Origin: an uncultured Gemmatimonadales bacterium | GTDB taxonomy: Bacteria; Gemmatimonadota; Gemmatimonadetes; Longimicrobiales; RSA9 | NCBI GenBank assembly: GCA_963708135.1 | Contig: OY970192.1 | Location: 2,080,001 to 2,144,000 of the forward strand | Direction of reading: 5' to 3' | DNA length: 64,000 bases | Part shown: positions 5,318-22,127 of the stretch, piece after piece | How positions within the stretch are numbered: the first letter of the stretch is position 1 | Layout of the letters: the number at the start of each line of letters is the position of its first letter | Notes under the pieces: model-generated | The model's input: the letters and a program-made list of their open reading frames with translations, nothing else | What the model was told of the DNA's origin: nothing | The model's database searches: none | Translations under genes and position numbers: made by a program

Positions 5318-7093
5318 TCAGTGCCGTGAGGCGGCCTTCGCCTTGTTCACGGCGTCGATGAACTTGTGGGAGTAGCCCACCATCTGGTTGAGCTGTGAGC
5401 GGATCCCCGGTTGGGCCTGGGCGTACGCGTCGGCCTGGTTGAAGTACGTGAGCGCCTTCTCGAAATCCGGCTCCGCCTTCCTGGCGGCCGCGGCGGTGCC
5501 CGGCTTGGCCAGGGCGATGCCGCGCTGGTAGTAGACGAGGCCGATCCAGAAGTTGGCCATCGCCTTGGTCTCGGGGCTCTCGGCCAGGTCGCGGGTGGCG
5601 GCGAAGTACTCGAGCGCCGCATCCTTGTCGCCCTTCTGGTACTTGTCGTTGTAGCCGATCCCGAACAGCAGGTTCGCCGCGACGTCCGCCTTCAGCTTGC
5701 CGCGGCTGATCGCCTGCTGGAACGCCGCCTTGGCCGCGCTGAGCTGTCCCCGCTGGGCCAGCCACTGCCCGCGCTTGGCGAACAACGGGTACTCGTTGTT
5801 CTTGTCGTACGCCTGCGCGGAGTCGAGCGCTGCGAGCGCCTGGTCGTACTGCCCCGTCGCGTTGAGCGCATCGGCGTAGGCGGACCAGATCAGCGGCATG
5901 CCGGGCTTCGCCTTTACGAGCTTGGCGCCGATCGTGGCGGCCTGCTGCGACTGGCCCTCCAGGTTCATGATCAGCAGCATGTTGCCGAGCACCGACGGAG
6001 CCGTTGCCGTGTCCTGCTGCTGATACAGCTGCATGTAGGCCGCGAGCGCCCTCTGATAGAGCGAGTCCACGTGCGCCGAGCGCCCGGCCGTGTCGGCCTT
6101 GGTCGTGTCCGCCTTCTGCGCCGCCTGCAGGGCCCAGTGCCCCTCGAACGTCAGCAGGTCCGGATTCACCCTGTTCAGCGAGTCGGGCTTGAGGCCCGGC
6201 GCGAGGATCGCGAGTGCGGCCTCGAAGTCTCCGGCCTTGGCCGCCTCGTTCGCGACGTTGATCCGTACGTTGGCGTCCCCCGGGTTCAGCTCCAGGTACT
6301 GGTTGAAGTACTGCAGCGACTCAGCGGAGTTGCCCAGCTTGGCCGCCACGATCCCCGCCAGCCGCAGGGCGTCCTGATGCGCCGGGTTCAGCTGGATCAC
6401 CTTCTTGAGCGCCTCCATGGACTGCTGCAGCGAGTCCATCTCCTCCAGCGCGCGGGCCTTGCCGTACAACGCAGTCGCCGACTTCGCGTTGATCTCGAGC
6501 GCCTTGTCGCACGCCTCACGCGCGTTCGACCACTGCTGGCTGCCCAGGTAGTCGCTGCAGAACGCCGTCTGCTGAAGCTGGTTCACGTAGGTCTTGAACG
6601 CCGTGAAGATCGACTGCGCCGCCTGCTCCGGCTTCGACGCCGTGAACGCCGGAACCTCGAACGTCTCGCCGTTCTTCGCACCCACGAACTGCGCCGTCAC
6701 CTGCATGACGTCGCCACCGGCTGGCTTGTACTCGCCGCACATCACGAGCTCGGCGTTGATCTGCACCGCCAGCTGGCGCGACTTGATGCAGTCGAGATCC
6801 TCTTCCTTTAGCTTGTATTTGCGCAGGTTGTCCTTCAGCTCATCCTTCGAGACCGCCTGGTGCCGCGGCATCTGCTCGATGAGCTTGCGCATGTCGTCGG
6901 CGACGTCCTTGCCGAAGCCGTCATCGACGTCCTTGGGATGGTCGAGGTTCGGAACCAGCACCCGGTAGCGCTGGCCCGACTGCTGCGCCGGCTGCTGGGC
7001 CGCCGCCGGCGAGGCCACGGTCCACGCGCCCGCGACCGCCAGCCCGAGCGTGAGGGCCATGCTCAGCCGCTGGTTCATGCGCATTCGCTGCAT
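5318..7093 (-). CDS. Exported tetratricopeptide repeat protein
   Basis: Signal peptide (..VASPAAAQQ), multiple TPR-like helical repeats; GGAG before ATG 7093. Confidence 0.85.
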   Translation of the reverse strand: MQRMRMNQRLSMALTLGLAVAGAWTVASPAAAQQPAQQSGQRYRVLVPNLDHPKDVDDGFGKDVADDMRKLIEQMPRHQAVSKDELKDNLRKYKLKEEDLDCIKSRQLAVQINAELVMCGEYKPAGGDVMQVTAQFVGAKNGETFEVPAFTASKPEQAAQSIFTAFKTYVNQLQQTAFCSDYLGSQQWSNAREACDKALEINAKSATALYGKARALEEMDSLQQSMEALKKVIQLNPAHQDALRLAGIVAAKLGNSAESLQYFNQYLELNPGDANVRINVANEAAKAGDFEAALAILAPGLKPDSLNRVNPDLLTFEGHWALQAAQKADTTKADTAGRSAHVDSLYQRALAAYMQLYQQQDTATAPSVLGNMLLIMNLEGQSQQAATIGAKLVKAKPGMPLIWSAYADALNATGQYDQALAALDSAQAYDKNNEYPLFAKRGQWLAQRGQLSAAKAAFQQAISRGKLKADVAANLLFGIGYNDKYQKGDKDAALEYFAATRDLAESPETKAMANFWIGLVYYQRGIALAKPGTAAAARKAEPDFEKALTYFNQADAYAQAQPGIRSQLNQMVGYSHKFIDAVNKAKAASRH

Positions 7094-7428: not shown

Positions 7429-7942
7429 ATGTCTGAGCGAACCGGGAGAACGACCGGCGCGAGGGGCCGGGCTGGAGCCCTCGAGGCGCTGGAGCGATAT
7501 CGCGCAGAGGCGGGAGGCGGCGGCGCGGACTGCCTGCTGAGAAGCGCACGGGCGGTCGGGCGTGGGGCCGAGCCGCCCCGGCGCCGGGCCGAGCTCGTCG
7601 AGCGGGCCATGCGTGAGAGCGGCCTGGCGTGGCAGGCGGCGGAGGCGCTCTACGCGCTCGCGCTCGAGGAGGAAATCGAGCCGGGCTTCGCCTTCGAGCT
7701 CGTGCGCTGCGGCGTCGGCGTCCGCCCGCCGGAGGAGCCCGAGGCGGCACCGGAGCGCTCGGTCGAAGAAACGCCGGAGTGGGTGGAAAGCTCCCGTCCC
7801 CGGCCCGAGGAGGCGGCGTGGGAGAGGCGGGCGCGGGCGAGCTTTCGGCGGCTCAGGCATCTCGCTCGAGGCGCACGCCACGCCGGAGGCCGCGCTGGCC
7901 GCGTACGCGGAGGAGCCGGACCTCGAGGAGACGGGCTACTGA
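7429..7942 (+). CDS. Hypothetical acidic protein with +1 frameshift near 7864
   Basis: ATG 7429 after GGAGG; frame reads ..SFRRLRHL then continues in another frame LEAHATPEAALAAYAEEPDLEETGY-stop. Confidence 0.6.
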
Positions 7943-7956
7943 CCGCCGCTCGCCCC

Positions 7957-8730
7957 TCAGCCGTCGAGGCGGCCCAGGAGGCGCAGCAGGGCGTCGAGGA
8001 TGGTGAGCGGGTGGGGGGGAAAGCCCGGGATCCAGAGATCCACCGGCAGGATGTCGTTCACACCGCCCCAGGTCTCGCTCGACTCCCTCCACGGCCCGCC
8101 GGAGATTGCATCGGCCCCGAGCGCGATGACGAGCTTCGGCGCGGGAATCGCGGCCCAGGTCCGCTCCAGCGCGGCGCGCATGTTCCGCGGCACCGGTCCG
8201 GTGACCACCAGCCCGTCGGCATGCCGCGGCGAGGCGACGATCTGGATGCCGAAACGGCCGAGATCGTAGACGATCGTGGAGAGCACGTTCACCTCGGCCT
8301 GATCGGCGCCCGCGTCACCGGCGGACACGTGCCGCAGGCGGAGCGAGCGGCCGAAGAGGCGGCGTGCCCGCGTTTCCAGCGCCGCCGCGCGCCGGTACGG
8401 CTCCCCTTCCACCACCACCAGGTCCTCCCCTCTCCCCGCCGCGAGGCGGTGGTCGCGCGTGAAGCGCACGGCGCCTCCGGGGCACGCTTCCTCGCAGGCT
8501 CCGCAGAACAGGCAGCGACCCAGGTCGAGGCGGAGCTTCCCCCCGCTCTGATCGAGTGCCTCCGTCGGGCAGGCCTCAATGCACGAGCTGCAGTCGTCAC
8601 CGCAGCGCGAGCCATCGAGAACGGGAAGTCCCCGGAACCGCCCCGGCAGCCCGGGCGCGTCGGGCCGGTCCACGGGCGGATCGATCGTGGGAGTACCCTG
8701 CCTCACCCGGTTCCTCAGGATCTCCAGCAT
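7957..8730 (-). CDS. Ehr small subunit: 2x[4Fe-4S] ferredoxin fused to NuoB/HycG-like domain lacking its cluster cysteines
   Basis: CGDDCSSCIEACP and CLFCGACEEACP; ASPRHADGLVVTGPV, VDLWIPGFPPHP. Confidence 0.88.
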   Translation of the reverse strand: MLEILRNRVRQGTPTIDPPVDRPDAPGLPGRFRGLPVLDGSRCGDDCSSCIEACPTEALDQSGGKLRLDLGRCLFCGACEEACPGGAVRFTRDHRLAAGRGEDLVVVEGEPYRRAAALETRARRLFGRSLRLRHVSAGDAGADQAEVNVLSTIVYDLGRFGIQIVASPRHADGLVVTGPVPRNMRAALERTWAAIPAPKLVIALGADAISGGPWRESSETWGGVNDILPVDLWIPGFPPHPLTILDALLRLLGRLDG

Positions 8731-8737
8731 CCCCGCC

Positions 8738-10252
8738 TCACAGGTCGTGTCCGCCGTAGGAAAGATTGAAGCTCTTGTTGCAGAGGGGAAAATCCGAGAT
8801 CGCCTGGCCGCGCAGCGCCAGCTCGAGCGCGGGCCAGTTGTGGAACGAGGGGTCGGTCACCTTGTAGCGGCGGAACCTTCCGCTGCTCCCGCTCAGCGCG
8901 ACGTGGGCAGCCTCGCCGCGCCACGCCTCCACGAGCGAGACGACTCCCGCACCCGCGTCCAGCGCGCCGCACTCGACCCGGACGGCTCCCGCCGGCAGCT
9001 CCTCGAGCAGCGCCCGGGCGAAGGAGAGCGAGCGCTGCGCCTCGAGCCAGCGGATGCTCGCGCGCGCGAACACATCTCCCTCGGCCGTTGTGACGGGCGG
9101 CACGTGCGCCAGGCGGTACATCCCGAACGGATGGTCGTGGCGCACGTCGCGCGCGAGACCGGAGGCGCGCGCCGCGGGTCCGACCATTCCAAGCGCGCGA
9201 GCTTGCGTTTCCGCGACGATCCCGGTCCCCTCCATGCGGTCCTGCACGCCCGCGTTCGACAGGAGCATCCCGGCCGCGGCCGTCAGCTCCCGCTCGGCCT
9301 CCGCCAGCGCGGTCGCCAGCAACCGGATCTGCTCCGTGGCCGGATCGACGCTCACTCCCCCGGGCCGCAGGAAGCAGCGCCCGAACCGGCTGCCGCAGAG
9401 GCTCGCGGTCATGTTCAGGAACGCGCCGCGCAGCCGCCCGCAGGAGGCCGCCGTCGGCTGGAATGCCACATCGCCCGCCAGCGCGCCGAGGTCTCCCGTG
9501 TGGTTCGCGAGACGCTCGAGCTCGAGCGCCAGTGCACGCAACGCGTGGGCGCGCGCCGGCACCGCGCAGCCGGCCAGCGCCTCGACGGCCTGCACGTAGG
9601 CCAGCGCATGGCCGATCGTGGTGTCCCCCGCGAGGTCCTCCATCCGGAAGACGGTCACCCGGTCCGGTCCCCCCACGAGCAGCGCCTCCAATCCTCGGTG
9701 CTGGAATCCCAGCATGATCTCGAGGTGGTAGACCGTCTCACCATGGCACTGGAAGCGGAAGTGGCCCGGTTCGATCACGCCCGCATGCACGGGCCCGACC
9801 GCGACCTCGTGAACCTCGAGGCCGTCCATGTGGAAGAAGGGGTAGTCCGCGCCGATCGGGAGCGTCGCGTCGTGCAGTCGATGCGACCCGGGCGGCGCCG
9901 CTGCGGGGCTGCGCAGCGGCTTGAGCCACGGATGTCCCTCCGGCACGATGCCGAGCTGTTCCGCGATCTCGCGCTCGAACCGGCTGGCGGCCACGCAGGC
10001 ATCCGAGAACGCGGGATAGCGCTCTCCCACCTCGGTCCGCATCACCGCGAGCCGTGCCGAGGCGTCGTCCGCGAGCACCGCCCACAGGCCGGAGCGCCCG
10101 CCTCCGAGCGGCTCCCCGAACAGCGTTACGAGACGCCAGCCGTCGCGCAGCCGCTCCAGGGCCAGCCGGCGGAAGCCGACGGGGTCGGCGGCGGCTACCC
10201 CGCCCGGCTGGAAGCGCTCGGCGTTGCGCACGAGAAGCGCAGGGGCGCTCAT
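8738..10252 (-). CDS. Ehr large subunit (HycE/NuoCD-like, no NiFe CxxC motifs)
   Basis: GPVHAGVIEPGHFRF, LAGDTTIGH, DPSFHNW, DFPLCNKSFNLSYGGHDL; ATG 10252 overlaps upstream stop. Confidence 0.9.
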   Translation of the reverse strand: MSAPALLVRNAERFQPGGVAAADPVGFRRLALERLRDGWRLVTLFGEPLGGGRSGLWAVLADDASARLAVMRTEVGERYPAFSDACVAASRFEREIAEQLGIVPEGHPWLKPLRSPAAAPPGSHRLHDATLPIGADYPFFHMDGLEVHEVAVGPVHAGVIEPGHFRFQCHGETVYHLEIMLGFQHRGLEALLVGGPDRVTVFRMEDLAGDTTIGHALAYVQAVEALAGCAVPARAHALRALALELERLANHTGDLGALAGDVAFQPTAASCGRLRGAFLNMTASLCGSRFGRCFLRPGGVSVDPATEQIRLLATALAEAERELTAAAGMLLSNAGVQDRMEGTGIVAETQARALGMVGPAARASGLARDVRHDHPFGMYRLAHVPPVTTAEGDVFARASIRWLEAQRSLSFARALLEELPAGAVRVECGALDAGAGVVSLVEAWRGEAAHVALSGSSGRFRRYKVTDPSFHNWPALELALRGQAISDFPLCNKSFNLSYGGHDL

Positions 10253-11683
10253 CCGCCTCCCCCTCCCACCAGCCGCGCCGCGGCCGTGAGTAGCTCGCGC
10301 AATGGAGCCGGAATCCACACGCCGAGCACCAGCACGGCCACGCCCAGCGCCAATGGCGGTAGCACGGCGGACGCACGTTCCACCGTCCCGGCGCGCAGCT
10401 CATCGGTCGGGGACTGGCCGAGGGCCATCCGGAGCACCACGCCGGCCATTCCCGCGAACACGGCGGCCAGCGCGCCAAGGTAGAGCGCCGCCACGACCCA
10501 GCGTCCGGCATCCAGAATGCCCTTCAGGATCGTCAGCTCGCTCAGGAACAGGCCAAAAGGGGGTGCTCCCGCGATGGCCAGGAAGCCGGCCACCCAGAGC
10601 GGCCCCGAGATCGGCAGGCGCCGGATGGCGCCGCGCACATCCGCCACGGCCTTGCTGCCATAGGCGGCCAGGAGGTTGCCGGCCGTGAGAAAGAGGAGGC
10701 CCTTGGCCAGGCCGTGCCCGAGCGCGTGCAGCATCGCCCCCCACGCCGCCACGCCGCCCACGCCGACGCCCAGCGCGAGGATTCCCATGTGCTCCATGCT
10801 CGAGTAGGCGAGAAGCCGCTTGAAGTCCTGCTGTCCGATAATGAACGCGGCCGACAGCGTCAGCGAGAGGAGTCCGAACGCCACGAGCACCGGCCGCACG
10901 AAGCCACCGAGCCCCGCCGCGAGGCAGACCTGCACCCCGCGAAGCAACGCCAGAAAGGCGCACGTCAGCAGTCCCCCCGACAGCAGGGCCGAGGCCGGCG
11001 CGGGCGCCTCGCTGTGGGCGTCGGGCAGCCACGCGTGCATCGGGGCGAGCCCCATCTTCGTTCCGTAGCCCGACGAGCAGGAAGATGAAGGCGGCGCGCA
11101 GCAGCTGCGGATCCAGGCCGGGCGCCGCGCGGAGAAGCGCGTCGAGGACCAGGGGCGCGCCCGCCGGCCCGCGGGTCGCGGACAGCGCGAGCAGGAACGT
11201 GCCGACGAGGGCGAGGGCGATCCCCACGGAGCAGAGGAGCAGGTACTTCCAGGCCGCCTCGAGGGCCTGCCGGGTGCGGTGGTGGTAGACCAGCGGCGCG
11301 CTGGCCAGCGTGGTGGACTCGACGGCCACCCAGAGGAGCCCCAGATGTCGGCTCACCGCCACCAGCGTCATCGCGGCCAGGAACCAGAGGAAACAGGCGA
11401 CGAAGGCGCGATCCTCCGCCCCTTCCCCCGCCAGGCTCCCCTGCACGGACGACGCCGTGGCCAGGAAAAGGAGCGTCACGAGGGCGAGCACGAGCCGGCC
11501 GAGGGCATCGAGGCCGATCCACGCCCCCGGGTGCGCGGGCGCGGGATGGAGGATCACCCAGGTGGCGATCCCGCTGTGGAGCAGCGCGCCGAGCACGAGA
11601 AGCGTCCTGCGCGTGGCGACCCTGCCCGAGGCGAAGGCGAGCGCACCGAGCAGCGCGGGGACGAGGACCAGGAGAACGAGCAC
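10249..11683 (-). CDS. hyfF: Hydrogenase-4 component F-like antiporter subunit; +1 frameshift near 11070
   Basis: EAAWKYLLLCSVG before and GTKMGLAPMHAWLPDAHSEAP, KRLLAYSSMEHMG after; GTC GGG C TAC has one extra base. Confidence 0.85.
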
Positions 11684-11687
11684 GCGG

Positions 11688-12341
11688 TCAGTCCCGGAGC
11701 GAGGCGAGCTCGGGCACGCTCATGTGGTCGAACTCGCGGTTGATGTGGAAGATCGCGATCCCCATGACGAACACGCCCACCAGCACGTCGAGCAGGATGC
11801 CCATCTCGACAAGGGTGGGCAGGCGGCTGGCCAGCGTCTGCCCGAGCAGGAAGATGCCGTTCTCGAGCAGCAGATACCCGAGCACCTGCGTCACCGCCTT
11901 CTTCCGCGACACCATCACGAGCGCGCCGATCATGAAGGTGGTCAGCGCGACCGGCACGAGGAGCGGCGCGGCCGGTGGAACGGGGACCGGCAGATCGCGG
12001 GCGAGCGCGAATGCGGCGGCGGTGAGCAGGCCGCCGATGACCAGCGATGCGGTGAAGCCGATGAACGGCTCGACCTCGCGACGGACGGCGGCCTCGCGCA
12101 TCGCACGGCCGAGCAGCCACGGGATCAGGACCCCCTTCACGCCCGCGGCCGTGAGCGCGAAAGCGGCCGTATGCGCGGCCGGCACGCCGCCGTGCAGCAG
12201 CAGCGGCAGCGCCCCGAGCAGCAGCCCCTGCGCGGCCACGATGCGGATCGACGCGCTCAGGCGGCTCGAGCCCAGGATCGCGAAGTCCGTGAGTACGACG
12301 AGCACGAGCAGCAGCTCCGTCGCGGAGGCCACGACGCTCAT
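11688..12341 (-). CDS. hyfE: Hydrogenase-4 component E-like membrane subunit
   Basis: QVLGYLLLENGIF, VEMGILLDVLVGVFVMG, HINREFD; ATG 12341 overlaps upstream stop. Confidence 0.88.
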   Translation of the reverse strand: MSVVASATELLLVLVVLTDFAILGSSRLSASIRIVAAQGLLLGALPLLLHGGVPAAHTAAFALTAAGVKGVLIPWLLGRAMREAAVRREVEPFIGFTASLVIGGLLTAAAFALARDLPVPVPPAAPLLVPVALTTFMIGALVMVSRKKAVTQVLGYLLLENGIFLLGQTLASRLPTLVEMGILLDVLVGVFVMGIAIFHINREFDHMSVPELASLRD

Positions 12342-13249
12342 CGCAGGGAGAGCACCACGGCGAAGGCGGCCAGCACGGCTGCGCCGACCAGGAGCTGTGG
12401 TACGCGCGCGAGCCGGAGTCGTGCCGTGACGGACTCGAGGATGCCGACCGCGACGCCGAGCCCGAGCAGGCCGGCGCCGAATAGCGCCATGTCGCCTTGA
12501 CTGCTGCCCGTCCGGAACGGCAACAGGAGGTCGCCGAGCAGCGCGGCGTAAAGCCAGAGCTTGAGCGCGGCGGCGTACTCGAGGAGCGCGAGGTCGGGAC
12601 CACCGTGGTCGAGGATCATGACCTCGTGGATCATCGTCAACTCGAGGTGCGTTGCGGGGTCGTCGACGGGGAGCCGGGCATTCTCCGAGAGTAGCACCAC
12701 GAGGAGGGCCGCCGCCGCCAGCGCGGGCGCGGCGGCGTTGGCGGCCCAGACCGCGCGCAGATCGGGGCCGAGCAGCCCGCTGAGCGACGCGTGGCGCGTG
12801 CCCAGCGCGAGCACGAGCACGACGCCGAAGAGGGCGAGCTCGGCCAGCGCCGAGAAGAACAGCTCCCGGCTCGCCCCCATCCCTTCGAAGCTCGATCCGG
12901 TATCCAGCGCGGCCAGCGCGGTCGCGAAGCGGGCGAGGCCGAGCGCGTAGGCCACGGCGATGACGTCGCCCGGGAACGCGACTGCCGCGGTCTGCCCGGC
13001 GGCGGGCACGAAGAGCAGTGCCACGGCGACGCCCGCGAGCCCGGCCACCGGGCCGAGGCGGAACAGCCAGGTGGTCGTGCGGCTGTAGACCGCGCCCTTC
13101 CCGAGCAGCCGGGCGAGGTCCCGGTACGGTTGCAGGATGGGCGCCCCCCGACGGCCCGCCATCCGCGCCTTCGTCCTGCCGATCACCCCGCTCAGGAGCG
13201 GCGCCAGGACCAGCGCCGCGAGCCACGTGGCCAGCCCCGCCCCGCTCAC
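12338..13249 (-). CDS. hyfC: HyfC/HycD (NuoH-like) membrane subunit
   Basis: GRRGAPILQPYRDL, LDTGSSFEGMGASRE, ENARLPVDDPATHLELTMIHE; GTG 13249 in GTGA overlap. Confidence 0.9.
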   Translation of the reverse strand: MSGAGLATWLAALVLAPLLSGVIGRTKARMAGRRGAPILQPYRDLARLLGKGAVYSRTTTWLFRLGPVAGLAGVAVALLFVPAAGQTAAVAFPGDVIAVAYALGLARFATALAALDTGSSFEGMGASRELFFSALAELALFGVVLVLALGTRHASLSGLLGPDLRAVWAANAAAPALAAAALLVVLLSENARLPVDDPATHLELTMIHEVMILDHGGPDLALLEYAAALKLWLYAALLGDLLLPFRTGSSQGDMALFGAGLLGLGVAVGILESVTARLRLARVPQLLVGAAVLAAFAVVLSLR

Positions 13250-15240
13250 CGAAGCCACCCCACGGCGAGCACGAGCAGCACGATCAACGCCGCGAAGATG
13301 TAGAGCAGGTAGAGGTGTGTGCCGCCCCGCTGCAGCCCGCGCGCACGGCCGAGCCATCCCTCGATCCGCTCGAACAGCGGCTGATAGAGCCGGCTGCGAA
13401 ACAGGTCCGGCGTTTCCGAGGCCAGCGAGGCCGCTTCCGGATGGAAGCCCTCCGGCGCGACCACCTCGGCGCGCCGGCTGCTCAGCGTGGGCCGGAAGAA
13501 CGACAGGAGCGGGTCCAGGAGCGACGAGCCCGTGTACTGCGCTCGCGGCGCCGCCTCCCCCTCGTAGCCACACCCCCAGGTCTCGTCCTCCGTCTGCGGC
13601 CGCCCGTGCAGGAGTCCGCGCCGCAGCAGCCCCACCACACCTCCGAATACCAGCAGAGCGACGGCGATCCGCGTGGGCCACCACGCGAGCCGAAACAGCA
13701 GGGTCACAGCGTCCCCCTTGAACGCCCTGAGCGATGCCGTGAGCTCGAGCACCGGACGCACCACCACCAGCATGCCGAGCGACGGAAACACGCCGAGCAC
13801 GACACAGAGCAGCGCCAGAACGTGCATCGGGATCCGCATGGCGCGCGGCGCTTCGTGAGCCGATGCTGCGGCGGCGCCGCGCGGCCGTCCCAGGAAGGCC
13901 ACCCCGAACGCCTTGGCGTACACGGCCGCCGCCACCGCGCCGGTCAGCGCCAGAACGCCGACGAGGAGGAGCCCGGGCCACGCATAGGGAGCCCGGATCG
14001 TCGTCACCAGCGCGAGCCCCGCCGAATAGAGGAAAAACTCGCTGGCGAAGCCGTTCAGCGGCGGTAGCGCGACCCCGGCCAGGGCCCCGATCAGGAAGGT
14101 CGTGCCGGTGTCCCCCATCCGGCGGAGGAGCCCACCGAGGCGGTCCAGCTCGAGTGTGCCCGCCCCGTGCCGGATCGATCCCGCGCCGAGAAAGAGCAGC
14201 CCCTTGAAGAGCGTGTGGTTTACCGCGTGGAAGAGCGCCGCCGCGAAACCGAGCACCGCGGTCACGGCGCTGCCCGTGCTCATTCCGAGGAGCCCGACGC
14301 CGATCGCCAGCGCGAGCACGCCGACGTTCTCGATGCTCGAGTAGGCCAGCAGGCGCTTCAGGTCCTGCTGCGCCCCGGCCGCCAGGATGCCTCCGAGCGC
14401 GCTGACCCCGCCGACGAGCACCAGGAGAGCGCCCCACCACCACGCCGGCGCACCGAGCAGGAGCAGCACCCTGAGGAGCCCGTAGATCCCGGTCTCGATC
14501 ATGACACCGGACAGCACCGCCGAGACGTGGCTGGGCGCTGCCGGATGCGCCTCGGGCAACCAGATGTGGGCAGGCACCAGTCCCGCCTTCGTGCCGAAGC
14601 CGACGAGGCCGAGCAGGAACATCGCGCCGGAGGAAACCCCGCCGGCCGCGACGTACGGCGCGCGGAAGTCCGGAGCACCGCCATGCCCCAGGAGCAGGAA
14701 GAGGACGAGCAGGAACGCCGTGCCGATATGGGTCGCGACGAGGTACGTCCACCCCGCGCGGCGCACCTCCGCCCGCTCGTCCTCGAAGACCACCAGGAAA
14801 TAAGAGGTGAGCGACATCACCTCCCACGCCACCAGGAACAACACCCCGTTCCGGGCCGACAGCACCAGCACTATGGCGGCCATGAGCAGATCGAAGAACA
14901 GCCACGACCACGCCGCTCGCCGCTCGCCCGTCCACGCCTCCAGGTATCGCGCGCCGTAGAGTGCCGCCGCGGCGAAGAGCACGTAGGCCGGCAACAGGAA
15001 GACGGCGCTGAGCCCGTCCGCCTGCAGCGTGAAGGCACCCAGGGGAACGGCCCACGGCAGAGACAACGCGATCGGCCCGGCGCCGAACAGGACGCCGGCG
15101 GCTGCAAGCACGCCCGCTGTCGAGCCTGCGATGCACGCGCCCGCACCGAGCACTCCGGCGCGACGCGTGTTCCGTCCCGCGAACGGAGCGAGGAGCCCGC
15201 CAACGACGGGCAGCAGCAGAGACAGGAGAAGCAGCGTCAC
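13246..15240 (-). CDS. hyfB: Hydrogenase-4 component B-like antiporter subunit
   Basis: FLVAWEVMSL, GTKAGLVPAHIWLPEAHPAAPS, KRLLAYSSIEN, PPLNGFASEF, TWGCGY. Confidence 0.92.
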   Translation of the reverse strand: MTLLLLSLLLPVVGGLLAPFAGRNTRRAGVLGAGACIAGSTAGVLAAAGVLFGAGPIALSLPWAVPLGAFTLQADGLSAVFLLPAYVLFAAAALYGARYLEAWTGERRAAWSWLFFDLLMAAIVLVLSARNGVLFLVAWEVMSLTSYFLVVFEDERAEVRRAGWTYLVATHIGTAFLLVLFLLLGHGGAPDFRAPYVAAGGVSSGAMFLLGLVGFGTKAGLVPAHIWLPEAHPAAPSHVSAVLSGVMIETGIYGLLRVLLLLGAPAWWWGALLVLVGGVSALGGILAAGAQQDLKRLLAYSSIENVGVLALAIGVGLLGMSTGSAVTAVLGFAAALFHAVNHTLFKGLLFLGAGSIRHGAGTLELDRLGGLLRRMGDTGTTFLIGALAGVALPPLNGFASEFFLYSAGLALVTTIRAPYAWPGLLLVGVLALTGAVAAAVYAKAFGVAFLGRPRGAAAASAHEAPRAMRIPMHVLALLCVVLGVFPSLGMLVVVRPVLELTASLRAFKGDAVTLLFRLAWWPTRIAVALLVFGGVVGLLRRGLLHGRPQTEDETWGCGYEGEAAPRAQYTGSSLLDPLLSFFRPTLSSRRAEVVAPEGFHPEAASLASETPDLFRSRLYQPLFERIEGWLGRARGLQRGGTHLYLLYIFAALIVLLVLAVGWLR

Positions 15241-15935
15241 GGGCGCGCTTCGATTCCGGCTCCGCGAGGCGGCGCGCTTCGCTCCAGGCGACGGACCGCC
15301 TCGATGATCTCCACGCCCGGACCGGCGGCGTCCACCAGCGCCCTCACGCCGCCGTCCCGGAGCGCGAACGCCAGCCGCGCGAGCAGGTGGAGGTGCGTTC
15401 GCACGGTCGGGCTGACGATCACGAAGAGCGTACGAACGCCGAGGCCGTCGGGCGAGGCGAGATCAAGCGGGCACCGGAGAAATGCCAGCGTGACGGTGGG
15501 GGCGGCCACATCGAGCACGATCGGCCGGCGAACGTGCGGCACGGCGACCCCGCCGCCTATGGCCGTGGAGCCGAACGTCTCGCGGGCGAGAAGCGCCTCG
15601 AGCAGGAAGGCGCGCTCGCCTTCCGCGGGAAGCGGCAGCCGCGCGACCACCTCGCCGAGAACGCCGGGCAGATCCTGTCCCGGCAGGTCGTGGTGGATTC
15701 CGCCGGCCGCGAGGGCTTCGGCGAGCGAGTCGGCGGGCGAGTCCCCCCACGCGAGCAGGGCGTCGGATCCCAGGTCGATTCCGCGCGCGCCGGCCCACTC
15801 GAGCAGCTCGTCGCGGCTCAGCATCCAGCGCTCACGCGCGTTGTGCGCGGGCAGGCTGCCGTCGCGGATGCCGCGCAGGATCAGCCGTTCCGGAACGTGC
15901 AGCAGGGTCGCGGCGTCGCGAACCGTGAGTCGCAT
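15237..15935 (-). CDS. HTH (excisionase-like) plus PTS EIIA (PtsN-like) fusion protein
   Basis: N-terminal LTVRDAATLLHV..GSLPA; C-terminal RETFGSTAIGGGVAVPH with phospho-His, HLHLLARL. Confidence 0.88.
   Translation of the reverse strand: MRLTVRDAATLLHVPERLILRGIRDGSLPAHNARERWMLSRDELLEWAGARGIDLGSDALLAWGDSPADSLAEALAAGGIHHDLPGQDLPGVLGEVVARLPLPAEGERAFLLEALLARETFGSTAIGGGVAVPHVRRPIVLDVAAPTVTLAFLRCPLDLASPDGLGVRTLFVIVSPTVRTHLHLLARLAFALRDGGVRALVDAAGPGVEIIEAVRRLERSAPPRGAGIEARP

Positions 15936-21497: not shown

Positions 21498-22127
<630 letters not shown>

Follow-up and report, generated by a model that had tools for sequence, protein, structure and literature searches.

Ehr, short for Ech/energy-converting hydrogenase-related, complexes are bacterial relatives of respiratory complex I. 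The Ehr complex encoded in the window, by which we denote the entire 64,000-nucleotide stretch of DNA that was analysed, contains a small subunit, EhrS, in which all four cysteines of the N2-type iron-sulfur cluster are replaced. Taken together with its relatives, and as judged from the sequences, this N2-less Ehr is a genuine variant, both conserved and recurrent, of a complex that is known but has yet to be characterised.

The Ehr operon and its genomic context

The gene ehrS (7957-8730, minus strand) is the last of a tightly coupled Ehr operon of seven genes, all located on the minus strand. The operon starts with an HTH_17-PTS EIIA fusion (15237-15935), a predicted regulator that is also found at 32 of the 36 four-cysteine loci with at least 9 kb of upstream sequence, and continues with genes for a HyfB-like antiporter subunit (13246-15240), a HyfC/NuoH-like membrane subunit (12338-13249), a HyfE/NuoK-like membrane subunit (11688-12341), a HyfF-like antiporter subunit (10249-11683) and the NuoC-NuoD/HycE-like large subunit EhrL (8738-10252, 504 residues). 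At five other loci (L064:1958-2665, L313:5517-6179, L314:15117-15779, L171 and L315), a second, divergent HTH-EIIA gene is located directly 3' of the small subunit. Both CxxC motifs of the NiFe site are replaced in EhrL, as had been proposed in the preliminary description of this DNA. In an alignment with HycE, AGDT is found at the place of CGIC and SFNLSYGG at the place of SLDPCYSC, at whose CY the alignment ends.

We found no sigma-70-like promoter for the operon, terminators were at chance level, and neither a fluoride riboswitch nor any other Rfam RNA was detected between positions 6500 and 20000 of the window or in eight loci; 'formate hydrogen lyase' genes are described as often riboswitch-linked in an excerpt of a review (PMC11139923). 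Elsewhere, the genome harbours a complex I that is complete and has a NuoB of its own, at 1.449-1.464 Mb, and three NiFe hydrogenase loci, and therefore should not depend on Ehr for the tasks of either system. It also contains an Mrp-like cluster, assigned by eye from the sequences, at about 5.238-5.242 Mb (G000:C1:5238203-5241784, outside the window) with a single antiporter-family match (PF00361).

Loss of the N2 ligands in EhrS

EhrS is, by translation, a protein of 257 residues that combines a HycF/NuoI-like ferredoxin part with two [4Fe-4S] motifs (residues 1 to about 105) and a HycG/NuoB domain. The ferredoxin motifs had been described as intact, and all of their eight cysteines are indeed present; the first motif reads CxxxCxxCxxxCP. 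In the HycG/NuoB domain, the sequences AGDAGADQAE, LGADAISGG and PGFPP of EhrS align with CGGCNGCEIE, GACGNSGG and PGCPP of E. coli HycG. The same cysteine motifs are found in MbhJ of Pyrococcus, to which EhrS was likewise aligned. In the first ligand loop (8302-8313, minus strand), Ala 140 (GCG, 8311-8313) and Asp 143 (GAT, 8302-8304) are found in place of the cysteines of the CxxC motif, next to the flanking changes G139D and E144Q. Asp 207 (GAT, 8110-8112, minus strand) replaces the third ligand, converting GAC to GAD, and Phe 237 (TTT, 8020-8022, minus strand) the fourth, converting PGCPP to PGFPP. The alignment with HycG and MbhJ thus confirms the proposed loss of all four NuoB/N2-type cysteines, and the codon positions given for GDAGADQ, GAD and PGFPP agree with the sequence. 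The same description had classified the replacements as in-frame multi-base substitutions, which applies to Ala 140, Asp 143 and Asp 207, each of which requires two or three base changes, but not to Phe 237, whose codon is one base away from that of cysteine.

A short-read contig from run X1, which may represent the source sample, matches positions 7892-8153 at a depth of 3.4 and with no differences and, since it spans Asp 207 and Phe 237, rules out sequencing error as the cause of both replacements. The codons of Ala 140 and Asp 143 are covered by none of the X1 pieces listed (8 of 21), and sequencing error is unlikely at these positions because relatives show the loss as well.

The changes in the domain are confined to the region of the cluster. 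Among 72 columns that are at least 95% conserved in 216 four-cysteine homologues, six are altered in EhrS of the window, namely the four ligands and G139D and E144Q of the same loop. The hypergeometric probability of such clustering is about 1.5e-5, calculated with a reference set that was partly picked by likeness to EhrS. The NuoB fold appears to be retained in an AlphaFold model based on a 45-row alignment, whose mean pLDDT of 84 drops to 60-67 around residues 141-160, in the former ligand loop, and whose top Foldseek matches are HycG, PSST and MbhJ.

Distribution, origins and replacement residues

The loss of N2 is not unique to the genome of the window. Among the best 119 protein matches, with identities of 59-68%, 59 contain all four cysteines, three contain two, 36 contain one and 21 contain none, in a set that was obtained from the best 120 of 7,998 matches and thus over-represents proteins resembling the query. 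Samples drawn by genome or by contig contain a minority of N2-less loci, namely 6 of 80 in a metagenome and 3 of 14, 0 of 28, 1 of 29 and 0 of 29 among the top-scoring loci of four phyla. The gene is found in 10 of the 73 genomes of the window's family, of which five (G000, G006, G014, G1329 and G1330) are N2-less and three encode four cysteines; one fragment carries the last two cysteines and the tenth genome falls outside the N2 count. A search of genome contigs with the single protein identified four full-length homologues, all with four cysteines, and a search of plasmids retrieved seven distant records.

To place these loci, a tree of EhrL, for which the trait was not used, was calculated from the 12 N2-less and 37 of the 176 four-cysteine loci. 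In this tree, the window is part of a five-member clade with an SH-aLRT value of 99, all of whose members are N2-less. The replacement residues at the four ligand positions differ between groups: the A/D/D/F set of the window is accompanied by S/E/S/F in its closest relatives and by S/C/E/W, D/A/C/N and D/C/D/N in others. A single origin of all 12 N2-less loci was rejected in AU tests (p = 0.001), which were carried out without one long row, L189, whereas a single clade consisting of the nine loci outside the D/C/D/N type (p = 0.38) or of eight of them (p = 0.24) was not. As far as the sequences permit this conclusion, N2 loss has thus arisen at least two times. The number of origins is possibly about four, as would follow from the EhrL tree and from a FastTree of the masked small subunit, but the AU values for the nine closer loci offer no support for splitting them, and we do not adopt a number beyond two. 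Within groups, the replacements are nearly invariant (S/E/S/F in all 27, Trp in all 53 and, for the first site, Asp in all 18), partly by construction since the groups were defined by these residues. Two unusual arrangements were encountered in other genomes: in G1052 (L277:1-13107), one cluster is made up of two sets of Ehr genes that interleave and include two large-small pairs, the second small subunit being N2-less (S/E/E/W), and in G574 (L278:6868-16859), an Ehr operon of the D/C/D/N type is located directly upstream of a complex I operon.

The residues found at the former ligand positions have a bearing on the proposal that the complex might employ another cofactor, held by two aspartates. 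In an extended form of this proposal, Asp 139, Asp 143 and Asp 207 would coordinate, in the position of N2, a cation or a cluster of unusual type and so preserve some role in electron transfer or gating. The three acidic side chains around the pocket make a cation site conceivable, and both the near-invariance of replacements within clades and the recurrence of a D-x-x-N pattern in two distant groups could be understood on this basis. However, the closest relatives contain Ser at two of the respective positions and Gly at position 139, the place of the fourth ligand is taken in two large groups by the bulky side chain of Phe or Trp, and no set of ligands is shared across clades. Since the residues differ between origins, they argue against one common substitute cofactor, and we consider the proposal weakened and its extended form improbable. 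An aromatic residue at the fourth position combined with small or acidic residues elsewhere would be more easily reconciled with a pocket that is plugged than with a new metal site shared by the groups.

Selection on the N2-less clade and integrity of the operon

A possible sign that the operon is turning into a pseudogene, with the loss of cysteines as part of that process, is found in the HyfF-like gene. Relative to three relatives, a G run near position 11070 (minus strand) is longer by a single G, resulting in a +1 frameshift. The background rate in the assembly is low, with 1 of 128 genes over 137 kb affected and about 0.06 events to be expected in 8 kb. The position is covered by none of the X1 pieces listed (8 of 21). 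However, the flagged gene among the 128 also shifts frame at a G run, as does a uridine kinase gene near its 3' end at about position 21670 of the window (minus strand), which makes an assembly error the likelier explanation, and the frameshift in the HyfF-like gene is thus probably such an error. In a second genome of the family, G014, two Ehr genes are broken by frameshifts, those of the HyfC-like and the large subunit (L162:9040-9863 and 13450-14360), and a 0.9-kb stretch separates its large and small subunits, which may reflect either noise in the assembly or decay.

These observations are opposed by the selective constraint on the coding sequences. Maximum likelihood values of omega (MG+F3X4) were estimated for the seven members of the clade after exclusion of the ligand-loop codons and compared to eight GC-matched control sets of four-cysteine loci. 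They amount to 0.061 for the NuoB domain (controls 0.019-0.094), 0.106 for EhrL (controls 0.052-0.121) and 0.133 for the ferredoxin part (controls 0.037-0.170) and are thus at control level throughout. A similar picture emerges from L313 and L314, two intact N2-less operons of one genus for which dS is unsaturated, where omega is 0.13 in the NuoB domain (three non-synonymous versus eight synonymous differences), 0.14 in EhrL and between 0.13 and 0.21 in the well-aligned membrane parts; the values for the N-terminal part of hyfF (0.64) and the regulator (1.29) originate from mismatched local matches and were not used. Pairwise dN/dS values against the window are higher for the NuoB domain (0.21-0.34), but they are inflated by GC-saturation of dS and the maximum likelihood estimates were therefore preferred. 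The NuoB domain nevertheless evolves somewhat faster in the window and in G006 than in relatives: the NuoB/EhrL ratio of dN in this pair is raised to 1.01, compared to a 5-95% range of 0.44-0.84 in controls, and 13 of 68 conserved columns are changed in the small subunit of G006.

The preliminary description had expected that the cysteine-less pattern, if functional, would be maintained in a clade at low dN/dS, and that close relatives with cysteines combined with relaxed selection would speak for decay. The first expectation is supported by the uniformly N2-less clade in the EhrL tree and its omega at control level, and the second situation was not encountered, as the closest relatives lack the cysteines and omega is low. 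In combination with the confinement of changes to the cluster site and the intact N2-less operons in L313 and L314, these sequence data lead us to conclude that the loss of N2 is not decay. We thus regard the progressive inactivation of the operon as very improbable and note that, even if the copy in the window had died recently, the loss of its cysteines would be older. In excerpts of a 2026 paper, the Ehr of G. sulfurreducens is treated as non-functional and drifting (PMC13194489), a view that would favour decay and that is contradicted for the clade of the window by the low omega values.

Iron-sulfur clusters and the conserved cavity of EhrL

The N2 site is not the only one to have been abandoned within the family. 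Ligands of all three clusters are retained in 172 of 218 loci, and in 33 N2 is retained but ligands are missing from either or both of the ferredoxin clusters, a count that is in part based on local alignments which were possibly cut at the N-terminus. Another nine loci lack N2 only, three lack N2 and one more cluster, and a single one, in G006, lacks all three. The latter (L163, G006:C93:742-1503) belongs to the same family as the window, with EhrL and the C-terminal part of the HyfF-like subunit being 66% and 74% identical to their counterparts, and is a candidate for a cofactor-free Ehr. In families f4, f5 and f1 of the same phylum (L138-L161, L168-L171 and L315), the N2 cysteines are kept and the ferredoxin clusters progressively lost, with CCCACSEC giving way to SAEF-type sequences.

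The fate of the ferredoxin clusters is of relevance for an alternative in which electrons pass between the remaining clusters and a partner in solution without involvement of EhrL, so that the complex might, for instance, sense redox state and gate the membrane arm accordingly. All of the 119 best matches, including the 60 N2-deficient proteins, keep the eight ferredoxin cysteines, and the omega of the ferredoxin part in the clade reflects constraint on this region. Conversely, G006 has lost these cysteines too, many relatives of the same phylum have lost them and retained N2, and the operon contains no gene for an electron donor. We thus assign a low probability to a rerouted redox function.

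In contrast to the clusters, 49 polar residues of EhrL, among them His 156, Glu 161, His 164, Asp 210, His 251, Asn 492, Lys 493 and Asp 503, reach 97% conservation or more across 188 loci irrespective of the state of N2. A co-variation of the C-terminal cysteine of EhrL (SYCGHDL), which is replaced by Gly, Ala or Ser in certain loci, with N2 loss was considered and dismissed, as it is also absent in 57 of 174 four-cysteine loci and retained in 7 of 11 N2-less ones; no other EhrL column tracked the loss.

The conserved cavity is at the centre of the main competing explanation, where the cavity of EhrL would bind a substrate or a non-redox metal and catalyse chemistry that drives the membrane arm or is driven by it, making N2 unnecessary. 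Vectorial CO2 hydration or the handling of weak acids would be examples, for which the DAB and NDH-1 Cup complexes offer an analogy. Apart from the cavity itself, this proposal would account for the NuoH-like subunit, whose acidic loop is unchanged, and it would be consistent with the abundance of Ehr subunits in formate-grown G. sulfurreducens, as described in excerpts of PMC7894505. Genes of SulP transporters or beta-carbonic anhydrases adjoin a minority of Ehr operons (L054:1875-3539, L062:1867-3159, L085, L069, L097 and L121), including two N2-less ones. However, only 4 of 172 four-cysteine and 1 of 8 N2-less loci have a SulP gene whose start lies no more than 1.4 kb downstream, the respective numbers for carbonic anhydrase are 0 of 172 and 1 of 8, and neither is found beside the operon of the window. 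The association is thus present but rare, and we have discarded it as not specific. Moreover, candidate C-terminal ligands vary, with residue 500 being Ala, Gly or Ser instead of Cys in the same 57 four-cysteine loci and His 502 being replaced by Phe in 26. By analogy, a gradient-coupled non-redox reaction would be possible but in our estimate rather unlikely.

Possible remodelling of the membrane arm

A further change concerns the membrane arm, where Glu 249 of the HyfB-like subunit (codon 14494-14496, minus strand) aligns with Lys 265 of NuoM and Lys 239 of HycC, a central lysine on TM8. The codon is covered by an X1 contig that matches positions 14470-14713 with no differences. Lysine is found at this position in 41 of 43 four-cysteine loci and in 108 of 112 top homologues, the four exceptions among the latter all being part of the seven-member clade of the window, whose other three members keep the residue. 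It is absent in all four N2-less operons of the clade for which the gene was at hand, with Glu in the window and Ala in L162, L313 and L314, but it is kept in three D/C/D/N operons and missing in two four-cysteine loci. Its loss is thus, on the evidence of these alignments, the trait of one clade and not a rule. In complex I of E. coli, Lys 265 has been proposed to act as the central donor of protons according to excerpts of PMC9271201, and in those of PMC5061711 it is called essential for pumping, whereas the HycC mutant K239A keeps most of its FHL activity. Translocation through the HyfB-like subunit may thus be altered or lost. The pattern suggests that the pumping axis was remodelled alongside the electron-conducting path. 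In the NuoH- and NuoK-like subunits, none of the 73 and 38 conserved columns, respectively, is changed.

Proposed mechanism of an N2-less Ehr

The cysteines missing in EhrS ligate the proximal cluster in group 4 hydrogenases, Ehr and complex I, and electron tunnelling is limited to about 14 Å per hop. The proximal or N2 cluster acts as last relay to quinone or the NiFe site (excerpts of PMC4758237 and PMC5061711). In its absence, the two ferredoxin clusters would be too far from the cavity of EhrL to feed it at a useful rate and may serve a structural or sensory role, and the complex would therefore not carry out its usual redox step. Since the loss recurs in related lineages under purifying selection, these machines likely work without delivering electrons to the old active site. 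We thus favour, with about as much belief as doubt, an Ehr that likely does not transfer electrons to its NiFe-less EhrL and that likely acts as a redox-uncoupled translocator of protons or other cations. Of the options raised in the preliminary description, an uncoupled ion pump would thus be the best supported. In such a protein, the pocket would be plugged, with Phe filling the space of the cluster and Asp, Glu or Ser taking over the backbone hydrogen bonds that once held its sulfides. EhrS would persist as scaffold for EhrL, and the cytoplasmic arm as scaffold or gate. The membrane arm consisting of the HyfB-, HyfF-, HyfC- and HyfE-like subunits would draw on a gradient already in place to move ions. 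It would be controlled by the HTH-EIIA regulator and might serve the homeostasis of pH or ions.

The translocator would account for the restriction of changes to the cluster site, the low omega across the operon, the predicted preservation of the fold, the origins in at least two lineages, the loss of other clusters elsewhere and the unaltered NuoH- and NuoK-like subunits. It is challenged by the fact that most Ehr keep all three clusters, indicating that the wire usually matters for something, and by the absent TM8 lysine in the clade of the window. Equally, the very high conservation of the EhrL cavity seems to go beyond the requirements of a mere scaffold, the genome contains an Mrp-like cluster, Ehr genes are disrupted in the window and in G014, and the dN ratio is raised in the pair of window and G006.

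A broader interpretation, which we advance tentatively and which in our view is somewhat more likely to fail than to hold, concerns the family as a whole. Every one of the three clusters is dispensed with in one lineage or another, and a single lineage has given up all of them, with the cavity and the NuoH-like subunit remaining fixed. Ehr may be built like complex I yet require no transfer of electrons at all, their conserved cavity hosting a non-redox reaction or a gate coupled to ion flow. If so, the N2-less clade that also lacks the TM8 lysine would be a natural experiment, which separates the ion-moving machinery of complex I from its redox chemistry.

Excerpts of the full-text literature, a scope outside of which the defining papers Coppi 2005 and Marreiros 2013 fall, contained no statement on the loss of N2 cysteines in Ehr small subunits. 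Ehr are widespread, and the proposals in the published excerpts assume that electrons pass to quinone or another acceptor, an assumption that becomes directly testable with conserved forms lacking N2. Should N2-less and four-cysteine Ehr share a phenotype, Ehr would not be oxidoreductases in the usual sense. N2-less Ehr would also provide natural complex I-like arms that are uncoupled from redox input, useful for understanding how the membrane arm is driven from the site of N2 and quinone. In addition, they would be a living counterpart to the evolutionary series relating Mrp, hydrogenases and complex I.

Relationship to known systems

The closest counterparts are other Ehr such as GSU0739-0745 of G. 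sulfurreducens, which share the HyfB-, HyfC-, HyfE- and HyfF-like subunits, the NiFe-less NuoCD-like subunit and the fused NuoI-NuoB subunit, a composition detailed in the available part of PMC6349859 (Supplementary Note 4). In excerpts of PMC10284858, PMC12342949, PMC4378227, PMC7304191 and 10.1101/765248, Ehr are defined by the loss of NiFe ligands and their function is called unknown. The complex of the window conforms to this definition with a group 4-like large subunit devoid of both NiFe CxxC motifs, two antiporter-like subunits (with the HyfF-like gene frameshifted in the assembly) together with NuoH- and HyfE-like subunits, and a NuoB-like small subunit fused to NuoI. Its EhrL nests among Ehr-type loci at 55-66% identity, in a tree without a named reference such as GSU EhrL. 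It differs from typical Ehr by the missing TM8 lysine of its HyfB-like subunit and by the absence of the four proximal-cluster cysteines, which are found in 205 of 218 loci and are not part of the published definitions in these excerpts. Electron flow in Ehr has been proposed to lead to quinone or to originate from formate dehydrogenase (PMC6349859, PMC8691401 and 10.1101/765248), which the form lacking N2 ligands could not support by the usual path, and one paper suggests a role in pH homeostasis (excerpt of PMC6688271).

The gene order of regulator, B, C, E, F, large and small subunit is shared with hyqRBCEFGI of Azorhizobium caulinodans, proposed in excerpts of PMC2650096 to encode an H2-oxidising hydrogenase whose HyqI contains the N2 cluster, in contrast to the window, where NiFe and N2 ligands are both missing. 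Likewise, the best matches in sequence and fold are found in group 4 [NiFe] hydrogenases, among them E. coli Hyc and Hyf and Pyrococcus Mbh (HycG, 7z0s_G; MbhJ, 6cfw_J; HycE; HycC), which hold a NiFe site and a proximal [4Fe-4S] cluster, whereas the window encodes the ligands of neither. With complex I, it shares the homologous core (NuoB, NuoI, NuoCD, NuoH, NuoK and NuoLMN) and charged residues along the membrane axis, but it lacks N2, the direct electron donor to quinone (excerpt of PMC4758237), along with the tandem CC of its ligands, the Tyr beside the first motif (in the AGDT region), the NADH module and the NuoA/J/L/M/N set, and all Nuo models score below their cut-offs. Finally, Mrp cation/proton antiporters operate antiporter-like subunits without redox input and would thus be the functional analogue of the translocator that we favour, although Mrp models score below the cut-off and genes of the MrpB, C, E, F and G type are absent from the operon. 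Conversely, Mrp is not known to contain homologues of NuoH, NuoB or NuoD. By published definitions, the complex of the window is thus an Ehr and not a group 4 hydrogenase, complex I or Mrp, but, by analogy with the latter, it may work like a secondary ion translocator.
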